DNA of 64,000 bases from an uncultured Candidatus Saccharibacteria bacterium (GCA_964576615.1 CAZNUU010000001.1:164226-228225); one strand, 5' to 3'; numbered from the stretch's first letter, positions 1,540 through 49,352 are shown. Notes: generated from the sequence alone by a model not told the origin. Translations and numbers: made by a program.

Positions 1540-1989
1540 TTAGCGTCTAGGAGTAGTACTGGCAAAAAACATGCCTGCTGGCCTAATTTGAATACTACTT
1601 GCAGTAAGACTGCCGTCGCTATTAGTTTGACCCATAGCAGTAATATTCTCTCCGATAGATAAATCATTTATCGAACCGGTAACCGTCTTCATCACCTCAG
1701 TACTTGATGCAATTAAAACAATTTTCGTACTACCATCTGGAGACTTGATCGTAATACCAGTGGCATCTTTTGAAATAATCTCCCCACCATTAAACCCACC
1801 CATACCACGAAGCCCCCTGCCCCCGCCAGCTCCAAACTGCACAAATTGACCACTCCTAACTGGGCCCTTATTTTTGGCATAAGTTATCCCGCCATAAAAA
1901 CCGGCAGCAATGAGAACCAAACCGATTATTCCAATCACAATTTTATTATTCATAATATTCATACGATATACATGTATATCTTGGTGCAC
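1540..1989 (-). CDS. hypothetical membrane-anchored Gly-rich protein at the end of the efflux operon.
   Basis: N-terminal TM (IVIGIIGLVLIAAGFYGG) and a GGGRGLRGMGGFNGG stretch; its start overlaps the permease stop. Confidence 0.4.
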   Translation of the reverse strand: MHQDIHVYRMNIMNNKIVIGIIGLVLIAAGFYGGITYAKNKGPVRSGQFVQFGAGGGRGLRGMGGFNGGEIISKDATGITIKSPDGSTKIVLIASSTEVMKTVTGSINDLSIGENITAMGQTNSDGSLTASSIQIRPAGMFFASTTPRR

Positions 1990-3314: not shown

Positions 3315-3990
3315 GCGTTATTAAAATTACCGTCCTACCTTCTTGTTCGTTTAACTTCTGAAATGTGCCCAAGACAATTTCTCCTGTCTTTGTGTCCAAA
3401 TTGCCAGTTGGTTCATCCGCCAAAATAAGGGTTGGATTATTTACCAAAGCTCTAGCAATAGCTACTATCTGTATCTGCCCACCAGAGAGTTCATTTGACC
3501 TATGTAAAAAATGACTTTCTTCGAGTCCGGAAGAAAACAGAGCATCTCTCGCTTTACTTTCTCTCTCTTCACCCACCACTCCAGCATATATAAGCGGCAA
3601 CATAACATTGCGGAGAACAGTGGTTCGCGGCAAAAGATTAAAGGCTTGAAAAACAAATCCAATTTTATCCTTCCGAATTTTCGCAAGCTCATCGTCCTCC
3701 AAAGTGGATACGTCTTTTCCATCCAGAAAATAAGATCCGCTGGTAGGAGTATCTAGACAACCTAAAATATGCATGAGAGTTGATTTACCTGAACCAGAAG
3801 GCCCCATGATGGCCACGAACTCTCCATCTTTAATATTAAAAGTTACACCCTTTAGGGCTTCAAATGCTGCTTCACCTGTACCATAAATCTTTTTGACATC
3901 TTTTATTTCAATCATTTTATCTGGAGATAAATACAGCGTTGCCACCAGCTGCTCTAGTTCCCCCGCTTGTCGTTCTGTTTCCCCCTCCAA
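3202..3990 (-). CDS. ABC transporter ATP-binding protein (MacB/LolD-like); likely start about 3915 at MIEIKDV.
   Basis: Walker [13 protein letters not shown] signature LSGGQ, Walker [12 protein letters not shown]. Confidence 0.85.
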
Positions 3991-5707
3991 ACAATGACGG
4001 AGCCGTTTGAGTTGTGGTTTTTGTAGTTCCGGAAATTGTTCTTGTCACTATTTGCTCCCCAGGATCAAGTCCAGATGTGATTTCTGTATTAGTATCATCA
4101 GAGATACCAACTTCAACCGAAACTTGCCCTGGCGAAGTAGCTGATACGACACCTGTTGATCCGCCAGTATCAGTTAAAGGTGGAGTGAAAACTTGAACAA
4201 AGCTTTGACCATTTAGAGTTTTAACTGCACTCGACGGAACAGATAGAACATCAGCGTGAACATCAGTGATGATTGAAGCATTTGCCGTCATGCCTGACCT
4301 AATCCTCTCGTCCTGACTATCGAATCCGATTTTAATAGCATAAGAGACAACACCTTGGCTTACAGTTCCAACTGTATCTACTTCTGCCACCTTACCTGTA
4401 AGGGTCAGTCCATCAATAGCGTCGAATGTGAGCGTCGTCTTGTCGCCTTCTTTTATTTTTGCAGCATCAACTTCGTTTAAAGATAACTCTGCAATTTTTT
4501 GATTGGTAATGAGCGTAGCAATCGCGGCAGAATTTCCCGCTGAATCATATTTTTTTATAGAAACCTGGCCGATAACTCCATCAAATGGAGCTCGGATAAA
4601 GTAATTTGCCAAAGTATTATTCGCATCCTGTAGAGCATTCTCCGCCTTGGTAACATTGAGCTGCGCACTTCTAAGGTCTAGGGAGTCCGCACCTGCAGTT
4701 ATTTCATTTAAGGATTCTTGTTTCTCTGTTATGGCTTGCTTGTCTTGGGTAAGACTATTTGTGTCAGAGAGAAGACTTGATAAGTGGGATGCAAGTTTAC
4801 TGGAGTATGTATTTAGATTTGTAATCTGGGTATCAGCAAGAGTAATGTGGGTGAGACCATGAGCTTTGTAGGTATCGATATAAAGCTGAATAAAACCATT
4901 GGCACTTTTTACAGCTTTTGCCACAGTAGTACTAGTATCATAGGTTTCTTTCAGAACTTTCTCAATTGAATCTTTGTCTGTAGAGATACTGAGCGCTTGA
5001 TAGTCGTTAAACATCGCATCGTAAGAAGCTTGTGCCGCTAAATAATCACTATATGCTGCATCTCGAAACGACTTTGCTCTTATATCATAAGGATCGACTG
5101 CATTTTTGTAATAATCAATATTCCACTGGGAGCTAGCCGCATCACTACCGGTCAAGATATTTTTTAAATTCAAGATAATATCAGGCAAATCCACAAACGA
5201 ACTAGCTATGTCAGCCTGGCTATTACTATAGAGTGTCGCAAGATTGCTTTGGGCATTAGTTAAGGCATTTTGGGCCTGCGTCAGTGTAAGCTGGGAGGCC
5301 GGTTTTTGTAATTTCTCTAGTGCAATCTGGGCGCTCTCTAAATTTGCCTGTGCATCTCGTACTGACTTTTGCGCATCCCGTGCATCAAGCTCAGCAATTA
5401 GAGTACCGGCCGAAACTTTTTGTCCCGCAATTACTCCAACATATACCACATCACCTGAAACTTTTGACTTAATTGCTAATTCATTTGAAGATGAAACCTG
5501 ACCAGAAGCCGAAACGGAGGAAACGATTGTCGCCTTTTCAGCAGTACCTAAGACGTAGTGGGTTTGGGTGGAAGTGGTGTGCAGTTTTGAGTAAGTAGAG
5601 TAGCCGGCCGAAAGAACTAAAACTGCAATGACAAACGAGGAGACCTTGTGGATCTTCGCCCAAGCTACCCATTTTTTTAAATGCGGATTTGAAAGTATTT
5701 TATTCAT
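3917..5707 (-). CDS. HlyD-family membrane-fusion (periplasmic adaptor) protein, MacA/YknX-like.
   Basis: N-terminal TM, biotinyl-lipoyl-like hairpin (VSGDVVYVGV...AGTLIAELD), a long coiled-coil region and a C-terminal beta-domain with a Gly/Thr-rich tail. Confidence 0.75.
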   Translation of the reverse strand: MNKILSNPHLKKWVAWAKIHKVSSFVIAVLVLSAGYSTYSKLHTTSTQTHYVLGTAEKATIVSSVSASGQVSSSNELAIKSKVSGDVVYVGVIAGQKVSAGTLIAELDARDAQKSVRDAQANLESAQIALEKLQKPASQLTLTQAQNALTNAQSNLATLYSNSQADIASSFVDLPDIILNLKNILTGSDAASSQWNIDYYKNAVDPYDIRAKSFRDAAYSDYLAAQASYDAMFNDYQALSISTDKDSIEKVLKETYDTSTTVAKAVKSANGFIQLYIDTYKAHGLTHITLADTQITNLNTYSSKLASHLSSLLSDTNSLTQDKQAITEKQESLNEITAGADSLDLRSAQLNVTKAENALQDANNTLANYFIRAPFDGVIGQVSIKKYDSAGNSAAIATLITNQKIAELSLNEVDAAKIKEGDKTTLTFDAIDGLTLTGKVAEVDTVGTVSQGVVSYAIKIGFDSQDERIRSGMTANASIITDVHADVLSVPSSAVKTLNGQSFVQVFTPPLTDTGGSTGVVSATSPGQVSVEVGISDDTNTEITSGLDPGEQIVTRTISGTTKTTTQTAPSLFGGGNRTTSGGTRAAGGNAVFISR

Positions 5708-13450: not shown

Positions 13451-14632
13451 TTACTTGAGATCCAGATAGGAATTTATATAGTGCACAGCAAATCCCCCAA
13501 AACTACTGTAACCTTCAAATGCTGAAGCTAGATTTGTTTTTTGTTTATCTAAATAACTTTTATTCGTGCTGTAAAAAGTTACATAGGATGGCTGAACGTT
13601 TCCGGTCTCTTGGGCAATCACGACTTTTGTTTTAGCTAAGAGCGCATCTTTTATTTCTCCTTTTGAAATGTCTATCGAGCCATCGTCGCCTCGACTAAAA
13701 TTCCGGTATGACATAACAACTAGTTTACTGCCCGAACGTCTGTCCAGTACACGGAGTAAGTGATCAAATGTAAAACCGTTCTCCCCTCTATATGAATACT
13801 CGGGCGTCTCGTTGCTATCGCTATCATAAAAATCCGGCACAACCACAGAGAGTAGTAGGTCCGTATTGTTTAATTTCGCAACAGTTTGGTCAACCAGATT
13901 TACAAAATTATAGAGAGTAACTTGTTTATTCTCTTCGTACTGTGGTAGCAAATACGACTCAACATCATACTGAAACCCCCGAAACTTTTCCGGGTGACTT
14001 TTATTAAACGCGATCACATAATCCAAAACAGCCAGCGGTTTATAAAGATTGCCGAACTCGGCCCAGTTTTGCCAGCCAGCCTCGGCATCTACAGAAATGC
14101 CGTCTTTGTGAGCGTCAGCAATAAATTTTTCAACTGCATTATCAAAAGCTAATTTAGATTTGTCTCTTTTTTCTCCGTTAGGCATGAGAAAAATGTCCAA
14201 ATAGGAATCTATGGAAAGATAAATTGTCTTAATTCCATTTTGTTTAGCACCAGAAATAACAAACTCTTTATAGGCAGGGGTAATATCCATAACTGGTGTC
14301 CAAAGCCAAGTGCCCACCTCCTCTCCTCCATTTATATTGCCAGTATTGTTGGAAACCGAACTTATCACACTCGCCAAAAGCAGATTTTTGTCAAAAACCA
14401 CAGTGTCTTTATATTTCGTATTTGCCTCAGAAATGCTTTTTGGATAATGGATATCAGAGTACTGTCTTGGATAGTAAATTTTTTTCGCTGTTGTTTTAGG
14501 CAAGAGAGCAATCGCCGGTTTTGGCTTTGTAGATTTGAGCGAAACAATAAAAAATCCCCCCATGATAATCACAAAAGCTCCTGCCCAAATCAATCGTTCG
14601 AAACTTAATACAGATTTTTTGCTTTTTTTCAT
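13451..14632 (-). CDS. hypothetical membrane-anchored protein, possibly glycoside-hydrolase-like (TIM-barrel).
   Basis: 393 aa with N-terminal TM; alternating beta/alpha pattern with conserved acidic/aromatic positions. Weak call. Confidence 0.3.
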   Translation of the reverse strand: MKKSKKSVLSFERLIWAGAFVIIMGGFFIVSLKSTKPKPAIALLPKTTAKKIYYPRQYSDIHYPKSISEANTKYKDTVVFDKNLLLASVISSVSNNTGNINGGEEVGTWLWTPVMDITPAYKEFVISGAKQNGIKTIYLSIDSYLDIFLMPNGEKRDKSKLAFDNAVEKFIADAHKDGISVDAEAGWQNWAEFGNLYKPLAVLDYVIAFNKSHPEKFRGFQYDVESYLLPQYEENKQVTLYNFVNLVDQTVAKLNNTDLLLSVVVPDFYDSDSNETPEYSYRGENGFTFDHLLRVLDRRSGSKLVVMSYRNFSRGDDGSIDISKGEIKDALLAKTKVVIAQETGNVQPSYVTFYSTNKSYLDKQKTNLASAFEGYSSFGGFAVHYINSYLDLK

Positions 14633-18053: not shown

Positions 18054-18896
18054 TTATTTCATTTTATAAAAAAGTTTATTGCCAAAACGGAGATCAATAT
18101 AATCTACTGAATCTAAACTATCAGTGAGAGGCTTGGTTTTAAGTAAGGCAGAAAGATTTTGGTAAGTCTCCTCGAGAGGATTTTTTGTATCAAAATAAAT
18201 TTTTAGACCTTTCTGTAAAATTATGGAAAATTGACTATCACTATCGGCTACTAGATAAAGAGGATGAAGATTGAGTGCTTTTATTGAATCGATAAATCCA
18301 GAAATTGCGGCAAACTCAGTACTGGATGAAATATATTCTTTACCTAGAGGATCGCCTGAGACCAACCCGTAGTATTTAAAATAAGCATCACCTGAAAAAA
18401 GAGGGGCTTCCGCAAATACAGTACTGTTTTGGTCTAGAAAATAACATTTCTCTGAATCTTGATAAGTCAGATCGCCGACTATGGCAGGTGGTTTGTCACA
18501 CCAAATAGCATAAGGACTTCTTTCCTTTATAGAAATCTGTAAGGTATGAAAGTCCTTAAGCTGCATGTCTAATGTATCTATTCGTTTGAACTGATCCTTC
18601 AGGTAACTTTCTAGCTTTTTTCTAGGTAACCAGAGTACATTGTTTTTTGGAAATAAATATAAATACGAACCGCTTAAAAAAGAAAGACTTTTGTCACTTA
18701 CCTCCTCTTCGGTCACCAATACTCCTCCGCTTAGTTCAACCTTTGAGAGACAAAACCCTGGTCGATGCGCTGCATATGAAGCCGCAGCTATTAAAAGAAC
18801 CAGTACTATAATTAGAATCAAATACCTTAGCCTTCTTTGATTTCTCTTTTTTTTCAGATACGCCTCGCGTAAAGGCAGAGAACTGGTAGTTATCAT
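18054..18896 (-). CDS. FtsQ/DivIB-like cell-division protein (POTRA domain).
   Basis: Cytoplasmic basic N-terminus, single TM, then LSKVELSGGVLVTEEEV...ISIKERSPYAIW typical of FtsQ POTRA. Confidence 0.5.
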   Translation of the reverse strand: MITTSSLPLREAYLKKKRNQRRLRYLILIIVLVLLIAAASYAAHRPGFCLSKVELSGGVLVTEEEVSDKSLSFLSGSYLYLFPKNNVLWLPRKKLESYLKDQFKRIDTLDMQLKDFHTLQISIKERSPYAIWCDKPPAIVGDLTYQDSEKCYFLDQNSTVFAEAPLFSGDAYFKYYGLVSGDPLGKEYISSSTEFAAISGFIDSIKALNLHPLYLVADSDSQFSIILQKGLKIYFDTKNPLEETYQNLSALLKTKPLTDSLDSVDYIDLRFGNKLFYKMK

Positions 18897-39091: not shown

Positions 39092-39430
39092 GGCGTAGTA
39101 GCCAAGTAGCATGAGCATAGCGAACTAGTAAAAAGCCAAGGGTCTGCATGCAGACAAATCTGAAATAATTTCAGATAATGAAGAACGAAGTAAATAGTGG
39201 CGTAGTAGCCAAGATAGCAAGGCAAAGGTCTGCAAAACCTTTATGCGGCGGCGCACATCCGCCCTACGCCTCCAGGCGAGGAAGCAAGCAAATTTATTTG
39301 CTTGCTTGCGGATGTGCGAGCCGCAGATATATTTTTTCAGTAGAAAAAATAATCGAGGCGGGGTCGCGAAATTTTGCAAGCGACGGCGAGCAAAATATTT
39401 GTGACCGCATCCGTCTTCGCATTTATATTT
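39092..39430 (+). repeat. GC-rich highly structured region with a tandem imperfect repeat, upstream of tRNA-Leu(TAA).
   Basis: GGCGTAGTAGCCAAGTAGCA...GGTCTGCA repeated at 39094 and 39198; palindrome GTCTGCATGCAGAC; hairpin ATCTGAAAT-aa-TTTCAGAT; 11-bp stem CGCACATCCGC...GCGGATGTGCG enclosing hairpin GCAAGCAAA-ttta-TTTGCTTGC. Confidence 0.4.
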
Positions 39431-39431
39431 T

Positions 39432-39513
39432 GCCCGGATGGCGGAACTGGTATACGCGCACGACTTAAAATCGTGTCTCGCAAGGGATGTGGGTTCGATT
39501 CCCACTCCGGGCA
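39432..39513 (+). tRNA. tRNA-Leu (anticodon TAA).
   Basis: GCCCGGA...anticodon stem CACGA/TCGTG with loop CT-TAA-AA, a long variable arm, T-arm GGGTTCGATTCCC, and acceptor TCCGGGC-A. Confidence 0.8.
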
Positions 39514-39536
39514 CAAATTTCCATTTATTTTAATAA

Positions 39537-39566
39537 TTGACAGATACATATAAACCGTGCTATAAT
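39537..39566 (+). promoter_or_regulatory. consensus sigma-70-type promoter with a strong Shine-Dalgarno, driving the GC-rich ORF at 39586.
   Basis: TTGACA (39537-42), 18-bp spacer, TATAAT (39561-66), then AAGGAGG (39572-78) 7 nt before the ATG. Confidence 0.6.
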
Positions 39567-39585
39567 TGAAAAAGGAGGCAGACTC

Positions 39586-39915
39586 ATGGAACTTGTTCCG
39601 TACCACCTGGCAGCCATCGTGGCTGGTCAGATCGCGCAGCAGGACTTCAGGGTAACCCTCAGCGAGTACATCTCGCGTAAAGGAAGCCCTTGGGTCATCA
39701 CCGTCGGGGAATCCTACTGGCAACGGCACCTGGTGATCGAAACGGTCATCCATGGTGGCAACGATGCCACGTTGGCGATTCTCGCCAACGAACAGTCAGT
39801 CTTGCGTACCCTCGACATCGACACGACGAAGGTCGACCGCAGGGTCTCGCTCAAGGAGCTCCTCGCCGGACGCTACAGTGGCATAAGGCAGGCTCTCGAT
39901 GCCGTTCATGCGTAG
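39586..39915 (+). CDS. hypothetical protein (109 aa), strongly GC-rich cargo gene.
   Basis: ORF with a perfect promoter and RBS, followed by two hairpins (39929-39955 and 39964-39995); no recognisable motif. Confidence 0.45.
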   Translation: MELVPYHLAAIVAGQIAQQDFRVTLSEYISRKGSPWVITVGESYWQRHLVIETVIHGGNDATLAILANEQSVLRTLDIDTTKVDRRVSLKELLAGRYSGIRQALDAVHA

Positions 39916-40000
39916 CGATGTTCGAAACGAGTGGGAGAGATGTATTCTCCCACTCGGCACTCTCGATAATTCAGAAGAGTTATCGGGATTTTTTGTATTT

Positions 40001-40039
40001 AAAAATCAATAGCCGAGAAACGTGAACCGTTTCTCGGCT
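40001..40039 (-). terminator. Rho-independent terminator for the minus-strand gene 40054..40671.
   Basis: 12-bp stem AGCCGAGAAACG/CGTTTCTCGGCT followed on the minus strand by a T-run. Confidence 0.65.
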
Positions 40040-40053
40040 AGAAGCTCAACCAC

Positions 40054-40671
40054 TTACGGGACCTCCCTACGAACGTGATAAGCCCCCCTGAGAAGAGAAG
40101 CTGAGATCACAAATAACGTGAGCGTAGAGAAGCACCAGAAAATGATCTTTGGTAGATCATCAGCTGGTGGGAGTCCAGTCCGCAGTAAGAGCCCTGAAAT
40201 GAACAGTGCTCCGACTGTAAACGCCGCCGCCATACCTTCGAATCGCAGAATCTCCTTACGCTGATAAGACCTTTGAGGCCTCGACAGCATTCCAATGGCG
40301 AGAGCCACCAGCAAGACTGTTGAGATTGTGATCACAACATCAGGAACTTCAAAACCAAACCAGCTTTTGAAAATCCTGATGATGAAGGGCTGCGGAACTC
40401 CCCCAATCCAGTTATCCTTGACGAATTCGGGATTGGAGAGACCTCGCAGGTAGGCCGAGAGCAGAGTGAGAGGACAGATGAAGTTGAACGGAATTTGCGC
40501 AAGACCGACTGTGATCAGGACAGCTCGATTGTACTTGAAGATCCTCGAGTAGCGAGAAGACAACGCAAAAAATGGACCAACTGCCATACCCACCATGATT
40601 ACAAGCACGACGAGGTGGAAAAAATCCACCAACATAGCCAGCCTTTCATAGAAGTTCATAACTTCCTCCAT
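40054..40671 (-). CDS. hypothetical polytopic membrane protein, GC-enriched, directly 3' of tRNA-Lys.
   Basis: 205 aa with about 5 TM helices. Confidence 0.4.
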   Translation of the reverse strand: MEEVMNFYERLAMLVDFFHLVVLVIMVGMAVGPFFALSSRYSRIFKYNRAVLITVGLAQIPFNFICPLTLLSAYLRGLSNPEFVKDNWIGGVPQPFIIRIFKSWFGFEVPDVVITISTVLLVALAIGMLSRPQRSYQRKEILRFEGMAAAFTVGALFISGLLLRTGLPPADDLPKIIFWCFSTLTLFVISASLLRGAYHVRREVP

Positions 40672-40723
40672 TGCGGATAATACGATTTAAATCGCTAATG
40701 TCAAATTCAGAAAAAACTTATTA

Positions 40724-40800
40724 GTGGTGCGCCCACCAGGGATCGAACCTGGGACATTCTCCTTAAGAGGGAGCTACTCTACCAGCTGAGTTATGGGCGC
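40724..40800 (-). tRNA. tRNA-Lys (anticodon CTT) with encoded CCA.
   Basis: The reverse complement gives GCGCCCATAACTCAGCTGGTAGAGTAGCTCC-CTCTTAA-GGAGAATGTCCCAGGTTCGATCCCTGGTGGGCGCACCA. Confidence 0.85.
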
Positions 40801-40839
40801 AGTATTTTTATTATACTCACTTTTATTCAGACTTCAATT

Positions 40840-40871
40840 TCTATATCATACGATATATCGTATGATATAGA
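40840..40871. promoter_or_regulatory. 32-bp perfect palindrome (operator-like), copy 1.
   Basis: TCTATATCATACGATATATCGTATGATATAGA, 2 nt beyond the regulator stop and about 40 nt upstream of the tRNA-Lys 5' end. Confidence 0.6.
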
Positions 40872-40872
40872 T

Positions 40873-41259
40873 TTAAAATTGCAAAAAATGTTTAAATCTA
40901 TCTCTGCCAACTCTAGGAGGTATTATTTTTTTGATTAATGTTTGGAAACTTTTTTGAAGCTTTATTTCTTTTATAATATTGTCATACTTCCCTATCTCAT
41001 AGCTATCTGAGATTCTGGCTACGGTCGATGGACTAACTTGTAATATATTTTCAATTGCATAAGAAGTTTCACCCTCATCAATCATAACTATCATAGCCAG
41101 TCTTTTAGCAAGCATTATTTTCTCTGTTTTGGTCAATACCTCATCAAAAAATACTTTTGTTTTACCAGACCGAACAAGATTTTGAATATTTTTATACAGT
41201 TGCTTGTTTATTTCTATAAATTTATTCCTTTCTAATAATTTTTTTGAAATATGTGGCAT
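40873..41259 (-). CDS. TrpR-family YerC/YecD-like HTH DNA-binding protein.
   Basis: ...VFFDEVLTKTEKIMLAKRLAMIVMIDEGETSYAIENILQVSPSTVARISD... matches the YerC pattern (FFDDLLTPNE...LAKRL...GxTYxEIxxxTGxSxxTVxR). Confidence 0.5.
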   Translation of the reverse strand: MPHISKKLLERNKFIEINKQLYKNIQNLVRSGKTKVFFDEVLTKTEKIMLAKRLAMIVMIDEGETSYAIENILQVSPSTVARISDSYEIGKYDNIIKEIKLQKSFQTLIKKIIPPRVGRDRFKHFLQF

Positions 41260-41264
41260 TTATA

Positions 41265-41288
41265 TATCATACGATATATCGTATGATA
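41265..41288. promoter_or_regulatory. 24-bp perfect palindrome (operator-like), copy 2, identical core to copy 1.
   Basis: TATCATACGATATATCGTATGATA, 5 nt upstream of the regulator ATG and about 50 nt upstream of tRNA-Leu(TAG). Confidence 0.6.
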
Positions 41289-41339
41289 AGAACAACTAGT
41301 TATATTGGGATGTTTGTGATATATTTCCTCTATTAATTT

Positions 41340-41420
41340 GGGCGAGTGGTGAAATGGCAGACACGCATGCCTTAGGAGCATGTCCCGCAAGGGGTGGAGG
41401 TTCAAGTCCTCTCTCGCCCA
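41340..41420 (+). tRNA. tRNA-Leu (anticodon TAG).
   Basis: GGGCGAG...anticodon stem CATGC/GCATG with loop CT-TAG-GA, long variable arm TCCCGCAAGGGGTG, T-arm GGAGGTTCAAGTCCTCT; followed by terminator AAACTGGC-gttca-GCCAGTTTTTG (41425-41449). Confidence 0.8.
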
Positions 41421-41617
41421 CAAGAAACTGGCGTTCAGCCAGTTTTTGTGCGGACTAGAGAGGACTTGAAGACCGATTGAGATATTTTTGGAGTTACGAG
41501 CAAAAATATCCAATTGGGATACTGATCGTGTAACGATCAAGTCCGCTTGCTAAAAATAGTTCCTGAACTATTTGACTTTTTTTAAAAAATCGATAGATTG
41601 GCCGAAGAGAGGATGAC

Positions 41618-41851
41618 ATGGCAAACAGAAAACCACGTCGCCGAGCTTCAGAAAGACTCATTCGGATAACCACAGATCTGGAGAAGGAAGACTACCAAGA
41701 TCTAATGGATCTAGGACGCAAGCGGCTTGCCTCGAGCCAGGCTGTCCTGGTGCGCAAAGCAATTCGACTCCTTGCGGCACTGGAAAAGGGGGAGATCTTC
41801 CTCACAACACGAAATGGAGAAAAAATACCCAAGTCAGTGATCTTCTCCTAA
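41618..41851 (+). CDS. small ribbon-helix-helix (CopG/Arc/ParD-like) protein, GC-enriched.
   Basis: Beta-strand ERLIRITTDL followed by two helices (EDYQDLMDLGRK, SSQAVLVRKAIRLLAA); terminator at 41871-41900. Confidence 0.4.
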   Translation: MANRKPRRRASERLIRITTDLEKEDYQDLMDLGRKRLASSQAVLVRKAIRLLAALEKGEIFLTTRNGEKIPKSVIFS

Positions 41852-42715: not shown

Positions 42716-43936
42716 ATGAATGGTGTGAGACCACAGCGACTTCCGGAGAGCCACGCGAAAGCGGCGCTCATCCTGATGGTCGCACTCGTGGTGAATCTGG
42801 CGCTTTTCGGGACAGCGGTCCTCATGATCCTCTTCGGAAGAAGTACGGGATCGTGGTGGGATACGCTTTCACAGGTCAACTTGGAAACGGGAGGGGTCTT
42901 GATCCTTCTCATCCAAGTCTTTCACGCTTTAAACAGCGTGAAGAACGTGAACCTCAACCAGCAGGCAATTCTGCTGCTGTTTGGGGCATTCGTGAAGTAC
43001 GTCGAGCCGGGGCTCATTTATGTGCCCTGGGGTTTCTGCAGGTTGCTTCGAGCGACCACCGAGACGATCGAGAAAGACGTCCCGGCAGACTCACGGTTCA
43101 TAGACCACAGCGATGTTACCGATCAGACCACCGGTGGAACGGGAGTAATCCGAAAGGGCTACTTCCCTCCCATTCGAGTGACCTTTGCACCAGCAAAGGC
43201 TGCGGAAACAATCGAGGTGGGCGGTGAGAGGATCACGATTCCGGCGGACGATCCCTACGGCAAGAGAAATACTGCCGAAGTGGAGTTCTCCTACGGTTTC
43301 GAGATCTACGACTACGCGCGAGTGGTAAAGCGGTTCGGCACTGACGATCCAATCGGCAAGGCCAAGAACCAGCTGGACGACGTCGGCATCGGAGTCGTAA
43401 ACGACGAGTTGTCGCGAATGACAACCGCCAGAGCGATGATGAGTCAATCAGCGGTAGCGAACAAGATCCGGGATACTCAGTCTACCGAATCGGCAGACTG
43501 GGGAGTTCAGATCCTCTTCGTTCGCTTGAAGCCGTTTGGGTTCAGTCACAAACTGAACACTGCGGTCAGACAAGCAGCGGAGTCGTTTGCGCTGAAACAG
43601 GCAGTCGTCGTCGCCTCAGAAGGCGAACGTGAGAGACTCACCAACGTCGGCACGGGCACAGCAGAAGCAGAACGTCTGCTTTTGGAGGCACGGGCCAAGG
43701 GTGAAGCGGCGCTCGCCAAGGTCGCAGAGACACCTGGTGGCAAGTACGCCATGGCGGTCCGAGAAATCGGGCAGGCTGTGACGGCTGCCAGGGCAGTCGT
43801 CGTTCCGGGAGATAATCTCCTCGGAGCGGTGGCAAGTGCTGCGGCACTGGTCAAACAAGTCGGTGACGTAACGGAAACCGGCACAACCGGCTCAGCAAGC
43901 GGAAGCAACACGCGACCGCCTGCATCGAGACCATGA
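42716..43936 (+). CDS. SPFH/band-7 (stomatin/flotillin-like) membrane protein, strongly GC-rich.
   Basis: N-terminal TM, then AILLLFGAFVKYVEPGLIYVPWGFCRLL...(SPFH core) and a flotillin-like Ala/Glu coiled coil ERLLLEARAKGEAALAKVAE. Confidence 0.6.
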   Translation: MNGVRPQRLPESHAKAALILMVALVVNLALFGTAVLMILFGRSTGSWWDTLSQVNLETGGVLILLIQVFHALNSVKNVNLNQQAILLLFGAFVKYVEPGLIYVPWGFCRLLRATTETIEKDVPADSRFIDHSDVTDQTTGGTGVIRKGYFPPIRVTFAPAKAAETIEVGGERITIPADDPYGKRNTAEVEFSYGFEIYDYARVVKRFGTDDPIGKAKNQLDDVGIGVVNDELSRMTTARAMMSQSAVANKIRDTQSTESADWGVQILFVRLKPFGFSHKLNTAVRQAAESFALKQAVVVASEGERERLTNVGTGTAEAERLLLEARAKGEAALAKVAETPGGKYAMAVREIGQAVTAARAVVVPGDNLLGAVASAAALVKQVGDVTETGTTGSASGSNTRPPASRP

Positions 43937-43946
43937 GGTGTGAGAG

Positions 43947-44714
43947 ATGATCATCGCAGCGGTCGTCGTGGTGCTCGCAGCCATTTACATTTGGCTGCGA
44001 GCACAACAAGATCGAGACAGCAGAGGTATTGCGCGGGAGAGGCAGGAAGCCCCTCCCGACCAGGCAGATACGCCCCCGCAACCCGAAAGGGATGCGGATG
44101 GCGACTTCCCTTGGTACAAGTGGTGGAAGAGGCCCGGGTGGTGGAAAGAGAACATCTTTACCATTCCACTCGGAATCCTCCTCGGCCACATCATCGTCGC
44201 TGTCGCGACTCCAGATTTGTACTTCGAGTACATCTGGAGTTCGTGGCAGTTCTGGGCGCTGCAAGCGGTGATCGTTATCGCCGCCTGGATGATTCCGCAA
44301 GGAAATGTCCAGTACCATCCGAAGCTTGGCAAGATCATTGTCGTTACCGCTCTGCTAGCTGTTGTATATGTCTGGGGAAACAAAGCCCTGGATGATGCAC
44401 AGAAAAGCGCAGCGGCATCGAACAATGCTCAAGCCAGCTCATCGACCCAGAACACCCCGCCACCGAACAACGGAGGCAGGATCGTGATCACCGCCCCGCC
44501 GGTCTCGCAAGAGCCGACGGGTCGCATCGCACTACCACCGAGAGCCGTGCTCTCGGCGAACAAGCCGTTCACAATTTTTCAACTCGACGAGAGGGGAAAA
44601 GAGGCCTCCTACGACGGAGGTCCGGGCATGGAGGGGGTTCATCTCCCGCCATCTCCCTACGCCAGGTTCCGGTCAAAATCAGAAGAACCGGTCCTGATAA
44701 CCTTCATCCAGTAA
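43947..44714 (+). CDS. polytopic membrane protein, possible NfeD-like SPFH partner, GC-rich.
   Basis: 4 TM helices plus a C-terminal soluble beta-rich segment; followed by terminator CCCCCCCGCA-tacg-TGCGGGGGGG (44742-44765). Confidence 0.35.
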   Translation: MIIAAVVVVLAAIYIWLRAQQDRDSRGIARERQEAPPDQADTPPQPERDADGDFPWYKWWKRPGWWKENIFTIPLGILLGHIIVAVATPDLYFEYIWSSWQFWALQAVIVIAAWMIPQGNVQYHPKLGKIIVVTALLAVVYVWGNKALDDAQKSAAASNNAQASSSTQNTPPPNNGGRIVITAPPVSQEPTGRIALPPRAVLSANKPFTIFQLDERGKEASYDGGPGMEGVHLPPSPYARFRSKSEEPVLITFIQ

Positions 44715-44780
44715 CTGTACGCAGTTTGTACATTCATATAGCCCCCCCGCATACGTGCGGGGGGGATTCGTTTATACGAG

Positions 44781-45065
44781 TTAGAGATTTAGAAACGATC
44801 TAGCCGTAGGAACATCACTTGGCGCAATGCCAAAAGTATCGAGGGTGAATTTTATAAGACCGTAGACAGAAAACATTATAACTAGACCCACAATACTCCA
44901 GAGTATTGCATTACGAGCCTCGTCCCTATCCGTAGAGTCAGCACCGAGCCTGAGAAATCGAACAACACTGTAGAAAAAATATGCAAAGGCTAGGGCAAAG
45001 CCGAGCGTAATTATGGGATTGAGAATAACACTATTTACATTATAGAGAAAAGTCGTGATAGTCAC
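44781..45065 (-). CDS. pilin-like small membrane protein, paralog A (no signal peptide; possibly truncated).
   Basis: Shares the two-helix core LxFALAFAYFFYSV...AILWSIVGLVIMFSVYGL with five upstream paralogs. Confidence 0.4.
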   Translation of the reverse strand: MTITTFLYNVNSVILNPIITLGFALAFAYFFYSVVRFLRLGADSTDRDEARNAILWSIVGLVIMFSVYGLIKFTLDTFGIAPSDVPTARSFLNL

Positions 45066-45073
45066 GAGAAACT

Positions 45074-45421
45074 TTATGAGTTAGGAAGCTTAGGTAGGTT
45101 GATGTTTGTATCTGTAAGACCAAACGTATTAACCAAGAAGTTGATTAGACCGTAGACAGCAATCATCACAGCCAAAGCTACGACACCCCAGATCATTATA
45201 CTTCTTCCCTCTGCAGCAGCCTTTGGATCGCTACCAACATTTCGGATGTATTTAATAAGACCCCAGAAGAAGTAGATAATAGCTAGACCGAAAAGAATCG
45301 GCAGTACTCGATCTAATACCTCTGTCTTAAACTGACTAAGTAAAGTACCCAGACCAGTTAGGCTTGCGGCAAAAGCCAAGGCAGGGCCAAAAACTAACAC
45401 TGAATAAGCAATTTTTTTCAT
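45074..45421 (-). CDS. VirB2/TrbC-like pilin-family small membrane protein, paralog B.
   Basis: Sec signal peptide (…ALAFA), then hydrophobic helix 1 (PILFGLAIIYFFWGLIKYI), polar loop (NVGSDPKAAAEGRS) and helix 2 (IMIWGVVALAVMIAVYGL). Confidence 0.45.
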   Translation of the reverse strand: MKKIAYSVLVFGPALAFAASLTGLGTLLSQFKTEVLDRVLPILFGLAIIYFFWGLIKYIRNVGSDPKAAAEGRSIMIWGVVALAVMIAVYGLINFLVNTFGLTDTNINLPKLPNS

Positions 45422-45505
45422 ATCTTAATGTAAATAACCTGTAATATCTTAATTATATAGTAAATAGTAAGGAAAACAAGCTAGTTGTGGATAAAAAGAA
45501 TAGCG

Positions 45506-45859
45506 TTATGGCCCAAATATACCGCTAAAATCACCGCCTGGTCTTATACCTAGAGCATCACCTATTGCAAACAATATTCCGTATATAGCAACGAATACAA
45601 ATAGAGCGACAATCCCCCAGATAATCTTATTTTTACCGTCCTCTCTGGTCTTATCGTTACCGGCATCATTTAAGATAAACTGGGCCAAGCCCCAGAAGAA
45701 GTAGACTATCGAGAGGCCAAAAAGAATCGGAACTATGCTCGATAGAATTTGCATTATTTCTTGGAGCAACCCCTTTATTCCATTTAATTGGGCAAAAGCT
45801 AAATTAGGTAACAAGACTAATAATGTATATTTTATTTTTTTCATATTTTTATGGACCAC
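45506..45859 (-). CDS. VirB2/TrbC-like pilin-family small membrane protein, paralog C.
   Basis: Signal peptide …NLAFA; VPILFGLSIVYFFWGLAQFIL ... IIWGIVALFVFVAIYGIL. Confidence 0.45.
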   Translation of the reverse strand: MVHKNMKKIKYTLLVLLPNLAFAQLNGIKGLLQEIMQILSSIVPILFGLSIVYFFWGLAQFILNDAGNDKTREDGKNKIIWGIVALFVFVAIYGILFAIGDALGIRPGGDFSGIFGP

Positions 45860-46202
45860 CTTTTAAATATGGTATGGCTGAGGCGGGACCAAAGCCAAGG
45901 TCACTTGCAATAAAACTGGTAATTGTTCTGAAAGTGAGAAGAATGAATAATGCCAAGATACCCCAAAGCATGTAGCTTTTACCCTTTTCTATATTTTCAT
46001 GACTATCCGAGTGGAGAATAAATTTGGAGAGCCCCCAAAAGAAAACAATGAAGGCAAGCGAAAAAAGAACAGGAACTAGAAGACCAATGGCACTAACAAT
46101 ATATTTTATTGTAGCCCCCAGAGTAGTGGAAAATAAGGAAAAAGCAAAAACTGGAATTGGACACAGAATCAAGAAAACAATTATAGATCTTATTTTTTTC
46201 AT
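45849..46202 (-). CDS. VirB2/TrbC-like pilin-family small membrane protein, paralog D.
   Basis: Signal peptide …VFAFS; VPVLFSLAFIVFFWGLSKFIL ... YMLWGILALFILLTF. Confidence 0.45.
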   Translation of the reverse strand: MKKIRSIIVFLILCPIPVFAFSLFSTTLGATIKYIVSAIGLLVPVLFSLAFIVFFWGLSKFILHSDSHENIEKGKSYMLWGILALFILLTFRTITSFIASDLGFGPASAIPYLKGGP

Positions 46203-46203
46203 G

Positions 46204-46581
46204 CTATGGACAAGGGAAGGAACCCGTTGCTACCACACTACAGACTGTACTCTGGATAACGAGTGAGATGCCAGCTGCCCCAAGAAGAATACCCGCACCA
46301 ACTAGTGCCCATAGTAGCCTCTGATGTGCTTCTTCTATTTTTTTTGGATTGCCTTGCGCAGTTAGATAAGTAAAACCTGCCCAGATAATCCAAAGTACGA
46401 CGACGATAGCGGCAACCGGCATTACAATCTTGTTCAAAATAACAGAAAGGAGCTGGGGTAAGGTATTTGCGCCACTTAGCGGGTTCGGAATAGAGGTGCC
46501 AGATCCTATTGTTTGAGCATATAAAACACCCGGTAAAAGATAGGCAAGATATTTAGTTTTTGTGAGAAGTTTCATACTCAA
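46204..46581 (-). CDS. VirB2/TrbC-like pilin-family small membrane protein, paralog E (C-terminal Cys pair).
   Basis: Signal peptide …VLYAQ; IVMPVAAIVVVLWIIWAGFTYL ... LLWALVGAGILLGAAG; ends CSVVATGSFPCP. Confidence 0.4.
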   Translation of the reverse strand: MSMKLLTKTKYLAYLLPGVLYAQTIGSGTSIPNPLSGANTLPQLLSVILNKIVMPVAAIVVVLWIIWAGFTYLTAQGNPKKIEEAHQRLLWALVGAGILLGAAGISLVIQSTVCSVVATGSFPCP

Positions 46582-46583
46582 TA

Positions 46584-47036
46584 TTATATTAAATTTGGAA
46601 TACTGCTGTTAAGTAAAGTTGAGGTGATTAAGTGGACAATGAGCCAAGCACCAAGGATAACCGCTATACCAATTGCACACTTAAGAAGTGTCTGGTTTGC
46701 CTCCGATCTTTTGCCGGGATTGGGACCTGAGATCATATACTTCCAGCCCGCAAAGGCAATCACAATCACAGTAAACAAAAGTGCAGTGACTGTTCCAAAG
46801 TTAACAATATTTATTACTTCCGGAATGAGATCTTTGTAAAAATCACAATCACCTGCTCTGCCTGTACTACCCCCCGTGCATTCCCAAACGATGCCAGTCT
46901 TACCACCAGAGCCTGCAGCCTGAGCATGAATTGTAAAAGGCAGAACAAAAAGAAATAATGTCGGAATAATTAGGAGAAAGAATGAAAAAATTTTTCTATT
47001 TAAAAACATACTACTGTATTTGGCTATTAAGTTCAT
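46584..47036 (-). CDS. VirB2/TrbC-like pilin-family small membrane protein, paralog F (Cys pair after the signal peptide).
   Basis: Signal peptide …TIHAQA; VWECTGGSTGRAGDCDF; TVTALLFTVIVIAFAGWKYM ... LLKCAIGIAVILGAWL. Confidence 0.4.
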   Translation of the reverse strand: MNLIAKYSSMFLNRKIFSFFLLIIPTLFLFVLPFTIHAQAAGSGGKTGIVWECTGGSTGRAGDCDFYKDLIPEVINIVNFGTVTALLFTVIVIAFAGWKYMISGPNPGKRSEANQTLLKCAIGIAVILGAWLIVHLITSTLLNSSIPNLI

Positions 47037-48300
47037 CGTTAGCTCTTTCTAGGGCTTCAGTTGAGCGTAAGTTTCCGCTTGTTACTCCCTCAATCATATC
47101 ACGGAAGGTATTCGAACTTGCCTTCGGATCTGGATCAAGCCAAGATTTTGAAATTAGAGCTGAGTTATAGAAAACAACTTTGAAGGCATCTGAGGGTCTA
47201 CTCGCCAAGAGGTCCCGACGAACCGGTGGTAAGTTAGTAATAGGTGCAAGAGCATTGATAGCCGCTGGCTCTATCAAAGCAAGAACAGCAGTGTAGGCAC
47301 CAGCAAGTTGTTTTGACTGCTTCACAATAGATAGAGAATAAATATGAGCATAGACAGTTTGTCTTTCCGCATCTCTGATCTGAGGTACAACCGATACATC
47401 AAAATTTAAATTAGGATTTTTTTGCTGAATGCCAAATATTTCACTAGCAAAACCTATGTACATCGACAATTTACCTGACAAAAAGAATGTAAGTGAGTTA
47501 GGCAGCGATCTGTTCCAGGTGTAGTTCGGAGATGTTGGGTTAGAGAATTGGGTGTAGAAATTTAGAGCGGATTGGCCAGGCCTAACTGGATAATTGAACT
47601 GAGCAGTAAGTTGTGACTTCACCCCATCCTTGGTTCTAGCTACGATAGGCGTCCCGGCCTGAAGCAAAAGCGTCGCAAAAACTTCTTTGGAATTAAGAAT
47701 ATTTCGCCACTCACCTAAGGCAATGGTTGAAGTCAGCACGTTTCCAGATGTGTCTTTGCGAGTTATTTTATCTAGCATAGGTGTAATCTCATCCCAATAT
47801 TTTGGCGATTGCGAAATGAGAGCATTTGAAAACATATCCCTATTCCAATACATCACCATTGGATCAACCATAAAAGGCAGAGCTAAAACTCCTTCGGGGG
47901 TAAGATATAGTTCCCCACCCTCAATAAAAGTATCCTTGAATGTTCTCTCAGAATAATTAGCAAAAGGTATGACAAAGAGCTTGTTTCTTTCTTTATACAA
48001 ATATTCATCTCGTAAAATAACAATATCTGGACCACTGCCTTCGGCTAGTGCTTCCGTAAATTCAGCATCAAAAGTTGTGGGGTCTTTCTCCACGTACTCA
48101 ACTTTGATGGTTTTACTATGTGCGACCGAAGAAGCAATATATGCTGCGTGAAACTGATCAGCAGAAATCGGCCCCCAGATTACCAGGTTTGACTCCCCTG
48201 TTGATCCCACTTTGGAAATAGCAAAAAGAACAATCCCAATAACCATACTCAAGACAAAGACTGCAATCACGACTATTTTAAATGTACTGGTTTCGTTCAT
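47011..48300 (-). CDS. membrane-anchored extracellular solute-binding protein (ABC-type SBP family 1-like), orphan.
   Basis: N-terminal TM anchor, then two-lobe periplasmic binding fold (…IVILRDEYL..., WNRDMF...); its 3' end overlaps paralog F. Confidence 0.55.
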   Translation of the reverse strand: MNETSTFKIVVIAVFVLSMVIGIVLFAISKVGSTGESNLVIWGPISADQFHAAYIASSVAHSKTIKVEYVEKDPTTFDAEFTEALAEGSGPDIVILRDEYLYKERNKLFVIPFANYSERTFKDTFIEGGELYLTPEGVLALPFMVDPMVMYWNRDMFSNALISQSPKYWDEITPMLDKITRKDTSGNVLTSTIALGEWRNILNSKEVFATLLLQAGTPIVARTKDGVKSQLTAQFNYPVRPGQSALNFYTQFSNPTSPNYTWNRSLPNSLTFFLSGKLSMYIGFASEIFGIQQKNPNLNFDVSVVPQIRDAERQTVYAHIYSLSIVKQSKQLAGAYTAVLALIEPAAINALAPITNLPPVRRDLLASRPSDAFKVVFYNSALISKSWLDPDPKASSNTFRDMIEGVTSGNLRSTEALERANDELNSQIQ

Positions 48301-48824
48301 AACTTCTTAAAAATTATTCCATAATGATGGCTACCGGCCGAGATCTCTTTGTCCTGACTAAATCCAACTTTTTCAAACATTTCTTTAACCACATTTTTCT
48401 TGACGACACTTTCCGGTTTTGGACCAATCCCTCCGAATGAATCCGTCCACTCCACCAAAAGCACTCTGCCACCAGGTTTTAGAATTCTTTTAGCTTCATT
48501 TATTGTCTCGTTTTTTTTCTCCAGTTGAAAAAGTAGATTACATATTAAAACGAGGTCAACCGATCCATCTCGCAGTTTGGTGCCGTTTGGCTTTTCCACA
48601 TCACCCCAGATAACTTCAACATTATATAGACCCTCGTGAACGGCGGAATTTTTTAATTTAGAAAGAAGATCCTTTTGAATATCTACGGAATAGACACGTC
48701 CCGTAGACATAAGAGCCTTGGCCACCTGGAAACTATAAGAACCAGAGCCTGAGCCGAAGTCAGCAATGTCCATCCCAGGCTGTATTCCAGATTGCTCAAT
48801 AATTCTGACAGGGTCAGAGAACAT
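48297..48824 (-). CDS. class I SAM-dependent methyltransferase.
   Basis: Motif I DIADFGSGSGSYSF, followed by VYSVDIQ and LLVEW. Confidence 0.7.
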   Translation of the reverse strand: MFSDPVRIIEQSGIQPGMDIADFGSGSGSYSFQVAKALMSTGRVYSVDIQKDLLSKLKNSAVHEGLYNVEVIWGDVEKPNGTKLRDGSVDLVLICNLLFQLEKKNETINEAKRILKPGGRVLLVEWTDSFGGIGPKPESVVKKNVVKEMFEKVGFSQDKEISAGSHHYGIIFKKL

Positions 48825-48923
48825 ACCTTTATTATATGATTAAAAAATTGCTATCGCACTTAGGTTTTCAACATAAACACGAAGGCTCCACACTTATGAA
48901 GCTGTGAAGCTTCGTGTAGAGCC

Positions 48924-49352
48924 TTACCTATCGCAACTGACGATGACACCGGCACTTCTCTTTTCGCCGACGAAGGCCTGACAGGTGATAGAGACCCCGT
49001 CTACCTTTATCGTAAGAAGTATCATGTTGACAACTCCGCCGGGGCGACGCTTGCCTTTGACCCTCTGCCACCTTTCGTTGATGGGAACATCCAGAGCTTT
49101 GTCGAAGTCGTGGTACGAGACCTCGACGGCGTCGAGACCACGGTGGACATGGTCATCCAGAATCTCGAATCCGCCCTGACCATCGTTTCGAACGATGACC
49201 AATTCACGTGAGAATTCGATCGCAACCATGTTACCGGCAGCGATTGAACCCATCGAATCCGACGTGTACACGAAGCTTTTGGTCGAGTCCGTAGCAGGGC
49301 TCTCGATGCAGGCACTCATGGCCAGAACCAGAGATACAAGGATCAATCTCAT
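48924..49352 (-). CDS. putative lipoprotein, strongly GC-rich islet.
   Basis: Signal peptide with lipobox-like LAMSAC; a beta-rich body. Confidence 0.35.
   Translation of the reverse strand: MRLILVSLVLAMSACIESPATDSTKSFVYTSDSMGSIAAGNMVAIEFSRELVIVRNDGQGGFEILDDHVHRGLDAVEVSYHDFDKALDVPINERWQRVKGKRRPGGVVNMILLTIKVDGVSITCQAFVGEKRSAGVIVSCDR

Follow-up and report, generated by a model that had tools for sequence, protein, structure and literature searches.

Pilin arrays and related secretion systems

Arrays of divergent pilin genes in Patescibacteria are already published (PMC12102498, PMC10633639). A survey counted 441 VirB2-like arrays in 383 Patescibacteria assemblies, defined as 2–11 pilin genes in tandem or one non-pilin gene apart with highly divergent paralogs, whose identity averages 25% and reaches 54% at most (PMC12102498). 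In Southlakia epibionticum, the essential six-pilin block SEML1_0014-0019 of PF18895 genes adjoins T4SS genes, and its six pilins are individually essential (PMC10633639). In cultured Patescibacteria, T4SS pilin genes also rank among the highest-expressed genes of unknown function (PMC10936435). The locus analysed here, with six consecutive genes at 18–47% pairwise identity, is an array as the survey defines it (PMC12102498), and its paralog identity lies inside the published range. As in other Patescibacteria arrays, including the 'Sec-secreted array' of TM7x, about six divergent same-strand PF18895 paralogs with signal peptides are carried by monoderm, host-dependent bacteria. However, the S. 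epibionticum array lies directly by T4SS machinery genes and has no solute-binding protein (SBP), whereas the present array is led by an SBP gene, usually with a methyltransferase gene, is unlinked from virB4, adjoins gyrA and includes a promoter within the array that bears a DnaA-box-like site. The main text of the survey describes no virB4-unlinked array by gyrA, no SBP/methyltransferase lead and no DnaA-box-like internal promoter (PMC12102498), and the literature searched contained no report of an SBP lead gene, fixed positional orthologs, a DnaA-box internal promoter or a dispensable methyltransferase. The earlier note on this DNA mentioned neither the published arrays (PMC12102498, PMC10633639) nor the internal promoter and its DnaA-box-like motif.

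Several more distant systems can be compared with the array. The VirB2/TrbC/TraA pilins of diderm T4SS (PF04956) are likewise small proteins with a leader, two hydrophobic helices and a short charged loop, and copy E passes the threshold of their family; in contrast, the other five copies fall below it, no virB3 or virB4 is adjacent, cyclisation, acetylation and lipid-bound filament assembly are features of the classical kind, and six pilins stand where the classical systems have a single major one. Mbov_0395/MMCAP2_0565 of Mycoplasma ICEs is a two-helix pilin-like protein from the T4SS of wall-less or monoderm bacteria, but the present copies score below the cut-off for it and the array has no ICE context. 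Tandem divergent VirB2 paralogs also occur in the host-associated Bartonella and Anaplasma (cited in PMC12102498), where they are thought to serve antigenic variation, whereas the present copies are positionally fixed and conserved nearly to the degree of a neighbouring housekeeping-like gene.

Gene content of the locus

Eight co-directional ORFs were called on the - strand at 44781-48824 of the window (the whole 64-kb stretch of DNA that was analysed), and the six small pilin-like ORFs, F to A, occupy 44781-47036 downstream of the SBP and methyltransferase genes (Table 1). ORF calling and an independent assembly (Logan contig), in which the array and its downstream neighbour appear again, bear out the earlier description of six tandem paralogs behind the SBP and methyltransferase, and the single operon proposed for them also stands. 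The gene overlaps cited with that proposal need revision: that of D with C is produced by a mechanical GTG start, because ATG 45844 (MKKIKY...) begins 4 nt past the D stop, a start that the independent gene call on the Logan contig also uses, while the 26-nt SBP/F overlap depends on the start chosen, and ATG 47009 leaves a 1-nt gap. The methyltransferase/SBP overlap of 4 nt (ATGA) is robust to start choice. In relatives, the SBP and the first pilin are mostly separated by few-nt gaps, the commonest spacings being -4 and +1 nt. The operon belongs to the core chromosome, where it lies between gyrA and housekeeping genes. Since synteny in the clade spans the whole stretch between gyrA and clpB, a general conservation of gene order could account in part for the SBP and pilin genes being neighbours. 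The hairpin at the other end of the array is likely a bidirectional terminator.

Table 1. Features of the operon and its surroundings in window coordinates, with Pfam scores in bits
Feature	Coordinates	Strand	PF18895	PF04956	Description
Promoter P1	48825..48880	-			Upstream of methyltransferase; T-tract, then -10 TATAAT 48831-48836
Methyltransferase ORF	48297-48824	-			175 aa; first gene of the operon
SBP ORF	47011-48300	-			429 aa
Pilin F	46584-47036	-	33.3	17.4	Position 1; mechanical call, likely true start ATG 47009; signal peptide, long exposed N-terminal region with Cys pair, helical hairpin
Pilin E	46204-46581	-	31.5	28.9	Position 2; mechanical call, likely start ATG 46575 (123 aa); most TrbC-like copy; I-x-N-P motif conserved ahead of helix 1
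Pilin D	45849-46202	-	32.7	no match	Middle position; FFWG-motif subfamily
Pilin C	45506-45859 (mechanical, GTG); 45506-45844 (ATG start)	-	34.9	15.8	Middle position; 112 aa; 47% identical to B
Internal promoter spacer P2	45422..45505	-			Box 45486-45494, -35 TTGTTT 45474-45479, -10 TATAAT 45452-45457
Pilin B	45074-45421	-	31.6	no match	Penultimate; first gene past P2; mean ortholog identity 50.7%
Pilin A	44781-45065	-	33.4	no match	Last; 94 aa; GTG start; no signal peptide; mean ortholog identity 52.1%
Hairpin	44742..44765	.			G+C-rich, 10-bp stem with 9 G-C pairs; between array and convergent 255-aa gene

The six small proteins were compared with pilin families by HMM search. All of them pass the Pfam cut-off for T4SS_pilin (PF18895, 26.6 bits), and E alone passes that for TrbC/VirB2 (PF04956, 27.9 bits), with sub-threshold scores for F and C. 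In NCBIfam, each of the six matches NF045849 (Mbov_0395) best, at 15.9–37.8 bits, the highest score (37.8) belonging to E and all lying under the curated cut-off of 40 bits. Orthologs of E carry the NCBI name 'TrbC/VirB2 family protein'. The VirB2/TrbC-like identity suggested from reading the sequence is therefore supported, since all six copies pass the PF18895 cut-off and one also passes that of TrbC/VirB2. Alignment gives a helix-loop-helix core common to all six ORFs, and the AF2 model of E is a helix hairpin (H39-72 and H77-115, pLDDT ~86). Copies B to F have a predicted N-terminal signal peptide, in which a K/R-rich start precedes a hydrophobic stretch and an AFA, VFA, LYA or IHA cleavage motif, and two hydrophobic segments past the leader according to hydropathy and sequence reading; the VirB2 topology of a leader plus two helices with a short polar loop between them is thus predicted to fit these five. 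Copy A opens at helix 1 with a total of two hydrophobic segments, which would correspond to the helices alone. The topology first ascribed to all six copies accordingly holds for the hairpin, with the signal peptide restricted to five. No pilin was matched in a profile search of solved structures, fold searches proved non-specific, and a PHROG search of the small ORFs returned no match, holins included. By family membership and predicted topology, the six genes encode pilin-like proteins of the VirB2/TrbC superfamily.

Some copies carry distinctive features beyond the common core. In addition to Cys53 and Cys64, F has a third cysteine in helix 2, and at least two cysteines occur in 72/72 of its orthologs (consensus yeC......G.C.F.DL). 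E has two C-terminal cysteines, so that the Cys pairs reported for two copies were found, but only that of F is conserved among orthologs. The orthologs of A have a median length of 95 aa and two hydrophobic segments, and always lack a signal peptide.

The SBP is of the carbohydrate type, with Pfam matches to SBP_bac_1/8 at 59.6 and 57.3 bits (cut-offs 27 and 26) and distant matches to the mannooligosaccharide-binding protein 4r9f and MalE. Hydropathy points to a single N-terminal transmembrane anchor at residues 9-27, and there is no lipobox Cys. More than 2800 homologs were found, the best 120 at 57–73% identity, and the protein is encoded in at least 572 species genomes and strongly conserved, with many aromatic and polar residues invariant. 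In the window and the related loci examined, the gene ahead of it is gyrA or the methyltransferase and pilin genes come after it; in 60/60 related Paceibacteria loci the pilin array follows directly. No ABC permease or ATPase lies beside the SBP gene, and no sugar-type permease occurs among the scanned window ORFs. PrgZ and TraC are pheromone-binding proteins of enterococcal conjugative plasmids, PrgZ being a peptide-type SBP (family 5), and in the ChvE-VirA sugar sensing of Agrobacterium, ChvE acts via a histidine kinase. By analogy, the present SBP may likewise belong with a T4SS, in gene position or in action, while its own transporter genes are not alongside, but, unlike PrgZ and ChvE, it is sugar-type (SBP_bac_1/8) and its tie to a T4SS is putative.

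The methyltransferase is a class I SAM-dependent enzyme, matching Methyltransf_31/11/25 at 57–69 bits, above the Pfam cut-offs; it has no hydrophobic segment and is predicted to be cytoplasmic, and its closest solved relative is 3dh0, whose function is uncharacterised. It adjoins the SBP in 61/75 related loci; the other 14/75 lack it at that position. Judged from gene content, it is a dispensable part of the arrangement and not a required one.

Positional orthology and transcription signals

Position 1 is held by F orthologs in 66/73 loci, position 2 by E orthologs in 70/73 loci and the last position by A orthologs in 68/71 loci, while B orthologs are penultimate in 43/71 and the number of middle B/C/D-type copies differs among genomes. 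The B-type subfamily was met in the SBP-array context only. The best DNA repeat between copies is 80% over 46 nt, and no gene-conversion or recombination tracts were found among them; on this sequence evidence, the copies are not recent duplicates. Orthologous pilins share 40–52% identity compared with 57% for the SBP, which indicates that pilins evolve modestly faster, and the alignments show least conservation in the exposed N-terminal parts and the tails, as had been noticed by eye. Taken at the sequence level, the array is an old, fixed and non-redundant set of subunits instead of interchangeable variants, with which the individual essentiality of the six S. epibionticum pilins is in keeping.

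The -10 of P1 lies 6 nt from the ATG, which makes the transcript near-leaderless, and P1 escaped the consensus scanner because its -35 is weak. The T-tract, TACTATAAT and the short leader are kept in related loci, 5' of the methyltransferase or, where that gene is absent, of the SBP. The P2 spacer is the widest gap of the array in 49/57 loci, and its box is a 9/9 match to the DnaA-box consensus TTATCCACA, of which only 3 exact copies occur in the whole window. Among the 57 spacers, the exact consensus is present in 18 vs 0.19 expected (~95-fold enriched), and with at most one mismatch in 41 vs 2.2 expected; the anchored consensus reads TTATCCACAg-N5-TTGt-N~19-TAtAAT. DnaA-box-regulated promoters are familiar from dnaA autoregulation and the DnaA regulons of Bacillus and Caulobacter, and P2 is similar to them in having the box just upstream of the -35 and conserved in many genomes. 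We know of no pilins as a target class of DnaA; P2 may be under DnaA control via this DnaA-box-like site.

Proposed assembly and alternative explanations

VirB4, VirD4, VirB6 and PrgI were not found in the window, where ORF scans confirmed the absence of VirB4 and VirD4 remarked on before, and the flanking 10 kb of 80 related loci contain no large ATPase-like ORF that recurs. VirB4 is listed for two relatives that carry the operon (L006, L034), and elsewhere in the Patescibacteria PF18895 genes are found at a distance of 2-13 genes from virB4/trsD (Table S3, PMC12102498). The T4SS link for this pilin subfamily thus rests on family membership and not on neighbourhood. We consider it probable that the array supplies a Patescibacteria T4SS with six pilin-like subunits of the VirB2/TrbC superfamily, a fixed set that shares an operon with the SBP and is assembled by VirB4 into a pilus or stalk. 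The bearer would be a member of the class Paceibacteria, in which the pilins, in the order F, E, B/C/D-type copies in varying number, B and A, would be co-transcribed with the anchored sugar-type SBP and usually the small methyltransferase from the promoter upstream of the operon, while P2 would drive the last two. The precursors of F to B would carry Sec signal peptides for removal by signal peptidase I, and the proteins would enter the membrane as helix-loop-helix hairpins with the short charged loop on the cytoplasmic side; A would enter it with no leader to be cleaved. By analogy with VirB2, the subunits may be pulled from the membrane by a VirB4 ATPase whose gene lies elsewhere in the genome, and may then build a pilus or stalk touching the host cell. 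To our knowledge, a pilus has never been seen on these organisms, and polymerisation of the pilins, dependence on VirB4 and any role of the SBP are put forward as suggestions.

It is rather improbable that the array products and the SBP act independently of any T4SS, as a complex for uptake or signalling whose membrane part consists of the two-helix proteins and whose anchored SBP captures a host-derived sugar. The constant place of the array directly behind the SBP, mostly at a few nt, the strong conservation of the SBP, the restriction of the B-type subfamily to this context and the lack of ABC transporter genes or a recurrent large ATPase-like ORF nearby would all suit such a complex. However, the extended synteny weakens the argument from neighbourhood, membership of the family is at a curated threshold, the same family adjoins virB4 in other lineages, and operon-bearing genomes are listed with VirB4; moreover, we know of no transporter made of signal-peptide-bearing two-helix subunits, which also counts against it. 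Variation has been considered too, in that interchangeable pilin or adhesin variants might match different hosts or evade defences, as for the VirB2 copies of Bartonella and Anaplasma, an idea raised by the published survey (PMC12102498) and, as adhesin variation, by the earlier note. Divergent paralogs, poorly conserved exposed regions and a changing number of middle copies are what such a system might show, but the fixed orthologs (F first, E second, A last) argue against a variation cassette, as do the modest extra divergence relative to the SBP, the lack of conversion tracts, the different export of A and the individually essential pilins of S. epibionticum, and we regard this explanation as very unlikely. 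That small hydrophobic two-helix proteins with leaders lie beside a modifying-type enzyme also led to the proposal that they are secreted peptides active on membranes (holin-, bacteriocin- or toxin-like), the methyltransferase modifying them and the SBP acting as a sensor. This is extremely improbable: PHROG gave no holin match, immunity, ABC-export and peptidase genes were not found nearby, the modifier is often absent, and a curated pilin family occupies a core chromosomal locus in at least 572 species.

If the array does encode subunits of a T4SS pilus, as we prefer, the SBP and pilins might further represent a Paceibacteria module, in which the SBP senses a host surface glycan or receives host-derived material together with the pilus and DnaA ties expression of B and A to the replication cycle. 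This extension is speculative and, on balance, unlikely; if true, an ultra-small epibiont would have its contact with the host, its capture of nutrients or signals and its cell cycle tied together. B, which is among the two most conserved pilins, may be regarded as a candidate major subunit.

The pilin-like proteins and their operon

Eight ORFs, all on the minus strand, fill positions 44781-48824: a methyltransferase, a membrane-anchored solute-binding protein (SBP), and six small ORFs called F, E, D, C, B and A in transcription order. All six small proteins scored 31.5-34.9 bits against PF18895, the Pfam T4SS pilin family with a curated cut-off of 26.6, and E also exceeded the cut-off of the TrbC/VirB2 family PF04956 (28.9 vs 27.9 bits), which upholds the pilin identity proposed in the earlier note for every copy. 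In addition, E orthologs carry the NCBI name "TrbC/VirB2 family protein", and the best NCBIfam match of each copy was NF045849, a Mycoplasma ICE pilin-like protein, with every score under the cut-off. The leader and two-helix topology described in that note was found in B to F by hydropathy and inspection, the only means used to assess signal peptides, whereas A has the two helices but no signal peptide. An AlphaFold2 model of E (35 orthologs) showed a helix hairpin, 39-72 and 77-115, with a pLDDT of about 86; fold searches with this two-helix model were uninformative. The AlphaFold2 model of the SBP (24 close homologs) reached a pLDDT of 55, too low for use.

Identity between the paralogs is 18-47%, and two subfamilies can be recognized: A, B, C and D, with a common FFWG motif, and the more TrbC-like E and F. 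Long DNA repeats are absent between the six copies, and recent duplication or gene conversion was rejected as their origin. The sequence contains a genuine 4-nt overlap between methyltransferase and SBP. Two further overlaps had been claimed: that of D and C disappears once C starts at the ATG at 45844, the start also chosen when a Logan contig of the same sequence was annotated independently, while the probable start of F is 47009, 1 nt past the SBP stop, a spacing common in relatives. An Rfam scan returned tRNAs only, with no match inside the operon.

Features of the array operon and its immediate flanks
Feature	Position	Strand	Remarks
142-aa ORF	48924-49352	-	lipoprotein-like leader (…LAMSAC); 53% G+C; between gyrA and operon promoter
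Promoter region P1	48825-48880		5' of methyltransferase
Class I SAM methyltransferase	48297-48824	-	175 aa
SBP	47011-48300	-	429 aa; one N-terminal hydrophobic anchor
Six small ORFs F, E, D, C, B, A (transcription order)		-	94-150 aa
Internal promoter spacer P2	45422-45505		widest intra-array gap
DnaA-box consensus, perfect match TTATCCACA	45486-45494	-	sequence match
G+C-rich hairpin	44742-44765		at operon end
Band_7/SPFH gene (406 aa) and 255-aa membrane protein	42716-44714	+	convergent with array

The array is real and its reading as pilins is right, and this kind of feature is already published. A 2025 survey applied PF18895 and PF04956 to 3,035 Patescibacteria genomes and found VirB2-like pilins in 1,948 VirB4-positive assemblies; 383 assemblies held 441 arrays between them, each with 2-11 pilin genes, and paralog identity averaged 25% (PMC12102498). 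Southlakia epibionticum has six PF18895 pilins (SEML1_0014-0019) next to its T4SS genes, and every one of the six is essential (PMC10633639); a 2025 review singles this out as possibly the first pilus in a monoderm T4SS (PMC12857230). Neither gyrA nor ABC or binding proteins come up in the main text of the survey (PMC12102498), and no paper joining Patescibacteria, VirB2 and solute binding was found among the open-access papers searched. What is new here is the conserved SBP-led operon, the positional orthology, the last member lacking a leader, and the internal promoter with its DnaA-box-like motif.

Conservation of the operon and of pilin position

Homologs of the SBP number more than 2800, and at least 572 species-level genomes encode it; the best 120 homologs share 57-73% identity and are labelled Paceibacterota, Parcubacteria, Zambryskibacteria or Minisyncoccia in their source records. 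Eighty fetched loci were compared by custom profile searches. Wherever 3.5 kb or more was available past the SBP (60 loci), a pilin array lies directly 3' of it without exception, most often with six genes (range 2-8), and the gap to the first pilin is mostly a few nucleotides, commonest at -4 and +1 nt. The methyltransferase adjoins the SBP in 61 of 75 loci, being absent from this place in a Zambryskibacteria-like group, and gyrA lies upstream of the operon in 59 of 63. Even distant B-type homologs (37-44% identity) have the same gene context.

To score the order of the pilins, each window pilin was paired with its best counterpart in every related locus. Among 73 loci, F comes first in 66 and E second in 70; A closes the array in 68 of 71, B mostly stands second to last, and the number of middle B/C/D-type copies differs between loci. 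FEDCBA is the most frequent type string (20 loci). Across these 20 loci together with the window, the mean pairwise identities of the orthologs are F 40.5%, E 47.9%, D 41.6%, C 44.2%, B 50.7% and A 52.1%, compared with 56.9% for the SBP. Moreover, every F ortholog has at least two cysteines in its exposed N-terminal part, and A orthologs are invariably short (median 95 aa) with two hydrophobic segments. These features fit a fixed multi-subunit set, and they do not fit a variation cassette.

The internal promoter and its DnaA-box-like motif

In 49 of 57 loci the widest intra-array gap comes just before the second-to-last gene. In the window this gap is P2, where the perfect DnaA-box match is followed after 6 nt by a -35-like TTGTTT and, 16 nt further, by TATAAT. 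The exact box occurs in 18 of the 57 relatives' spacers (0.19 expected), and a box with at most one mismatch in 41 (2.2 expected). Counting either orientation, the box is enriched about 95-fold in the penultimate-pilin spacer of related genomes, which holds half of the exact boxes found across 1.24 Mb of loci, and the anchored consensus reads TTATCCACAg-N5-TTGt-N~19-TAtAAT. The box was rejected as a general promoter element: the 64-kb window has only three exact ones, and the region 5' of the methyltransferase is not enriched in it. From its sequence, the candidate box might be bound by DnaA, and we infer that B and A may be the most abundant subunits. In distant loci (L028, L031, L034, L039, L045, L053, L055 and others), a conserved (A)TGGTCGTT was observed in the leader 3' of the -10 element; the DnaA-box-like motif of these loci is inverted and the methyltransferase is missing.

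A second conserved promoter, nearly leaderless, lies 5' of the methyltransferase, or of the SBP where the methyltransferase is missing. In the window (P1) and in loci L001-L084 it is of one type, a T-tract and TA(C/T)TATAAT about 6-9 nt before the start codon, which suggests that the mRNA of the first operon gene is leaderless or nearly so.

Possible function and genomic surroundings

The best-supported reading makes the six proteins T4SS pilin-like subunits. On this view Sec would export them, they would insert into the membrane as hairpins, and a VirB4 machine encoded elsewhere would assemble them into a host-contacting filament or stalk. The positional orthologs likely have distinct roles, and it may be speculated that F, with its disulfide-capable exposed loop, is a minor or tip subunit, that B and perhaps E are the bulk subunits, and that A, without a leader, is a membrane-retained base. 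A host sugar may be what the SBP senses or captures; binding proteins are linked to T4SS control in the precedents PrgZ and ChvE.

As the earlier note stated, no VirB4 or VirD4 was found among the scanned window ORFs (all of at least 377 aa and most of 200-350 aa), and the same scan found no VirB6, PrgI or sugar ABC permease; nor was a recurrent VirB4-like ORF present within 10 kb in the 80 loci. For Woesebacteria and Nomurabacteria, rows of Table S3 in the survey show PF18895 genes with virB4/trsD a few genes away (PMC12102498). Two genomes with the present operon, Parcubacteria C7867-006 and Zambryskibacteria RIFOXYC1_FULL_39_10, are listed as VirB4-positive. A rival explanation is a membrane complex of the SBP and the pilin-like proteins that would work independently of the T4SS. 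Synteny covers the entire region, from Lactamase_B_3 and gyrA through IF-2, NifS and ClpB, so that adjacency alone says less about a functional link than the close coupling of the genes does; if the SBP link were mere gene-order conservation, the locus would be an ordinary case of the published array. The adhesin-variation system raised in the earlier note is poorly supported, given the fixed positional orthologs, the lack of gene conversion and ortholog identities of 40.5-52.1%. Equally poorly supported is its suggestion of membrane-active peptides, as a PHROGs scan for holin-like families gave no match.

The function of the T4SS, including its substrate and transport direction, is among the main open questions in Patescibacteria biology, and epibiotic growth requires this system in the sole species tested. 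Read as T4SS pilins, the locus represents no new kind of system and gives handles for Paceibacteria, the largest class: fixed, distinguishable orthologs suggest testable major, minor and anchor roles, the ligand of the strictly co-operonic SBP could indicate what the system senses or takes up, and the conserved regulatory site may tie pilus production to DNA replication.

The window is ordinary Patescibacteria chromosome, with GyrA, ClpB, TopA, IF-2, SerRS, RelA, FtsA/FtsZ, ParB, signal peptidase I, DprA and eight tRNAs. Gene order is conserved clade-wide over tens of kb (31576-58966 compared with L001 and L086-L088), running HisRS, signal peptidase I, Pth, S1, Lactamase_B_3, GyrA, the operon, Band_7, RbfA, IF-2, NifS, Trypsin_2 and ClpB. 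The Band_7 gene and its 255-aa partner have 57% G+C against 42% for the window. Relatives carry a convergent Band_7 gene with a 210-370-aa ORF, of raised G+C in all three checked (L005, 55-59% vs 42%; L001; L010), and the pair therefore looks like a stable compositional oddity rather than a recent insertion. Because of this matching pair, and because an independent assembly has the same junction with the 255-aa gene, an assembly chimera was rejected for the downstream junction. The 142-aa ORF matched nothing in Pfam or PHROGs, none of the 80 related loci has a homolog, and it is either lineage-specific or spurious.

Elsewhere, a tRNA cluster (Cys, Leu, Lys, Leu; 39199-41421) has a Trp-repressor-like ORF (40873-41259) and a membrane protein with a weak match to DUF2784 interspersed among its genes, and is followed by a 77-aa ORF without Pfam match (41618-41851) and a DUF305 protein. 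Two minus-strand ORFs of 393 and 280 aa (13451-14632 and 18054-18896), also without Pfam match, lie among housekeeping genes. As well, a MacB-type permease (MacB_PCD and FtsX) and a 596-aa HlyD-like adaptor are encoded at 1989-5707 (minus strand), a tripartite-efflux-style adaptor being unexpected in a bacterium with a presumed single membrane.
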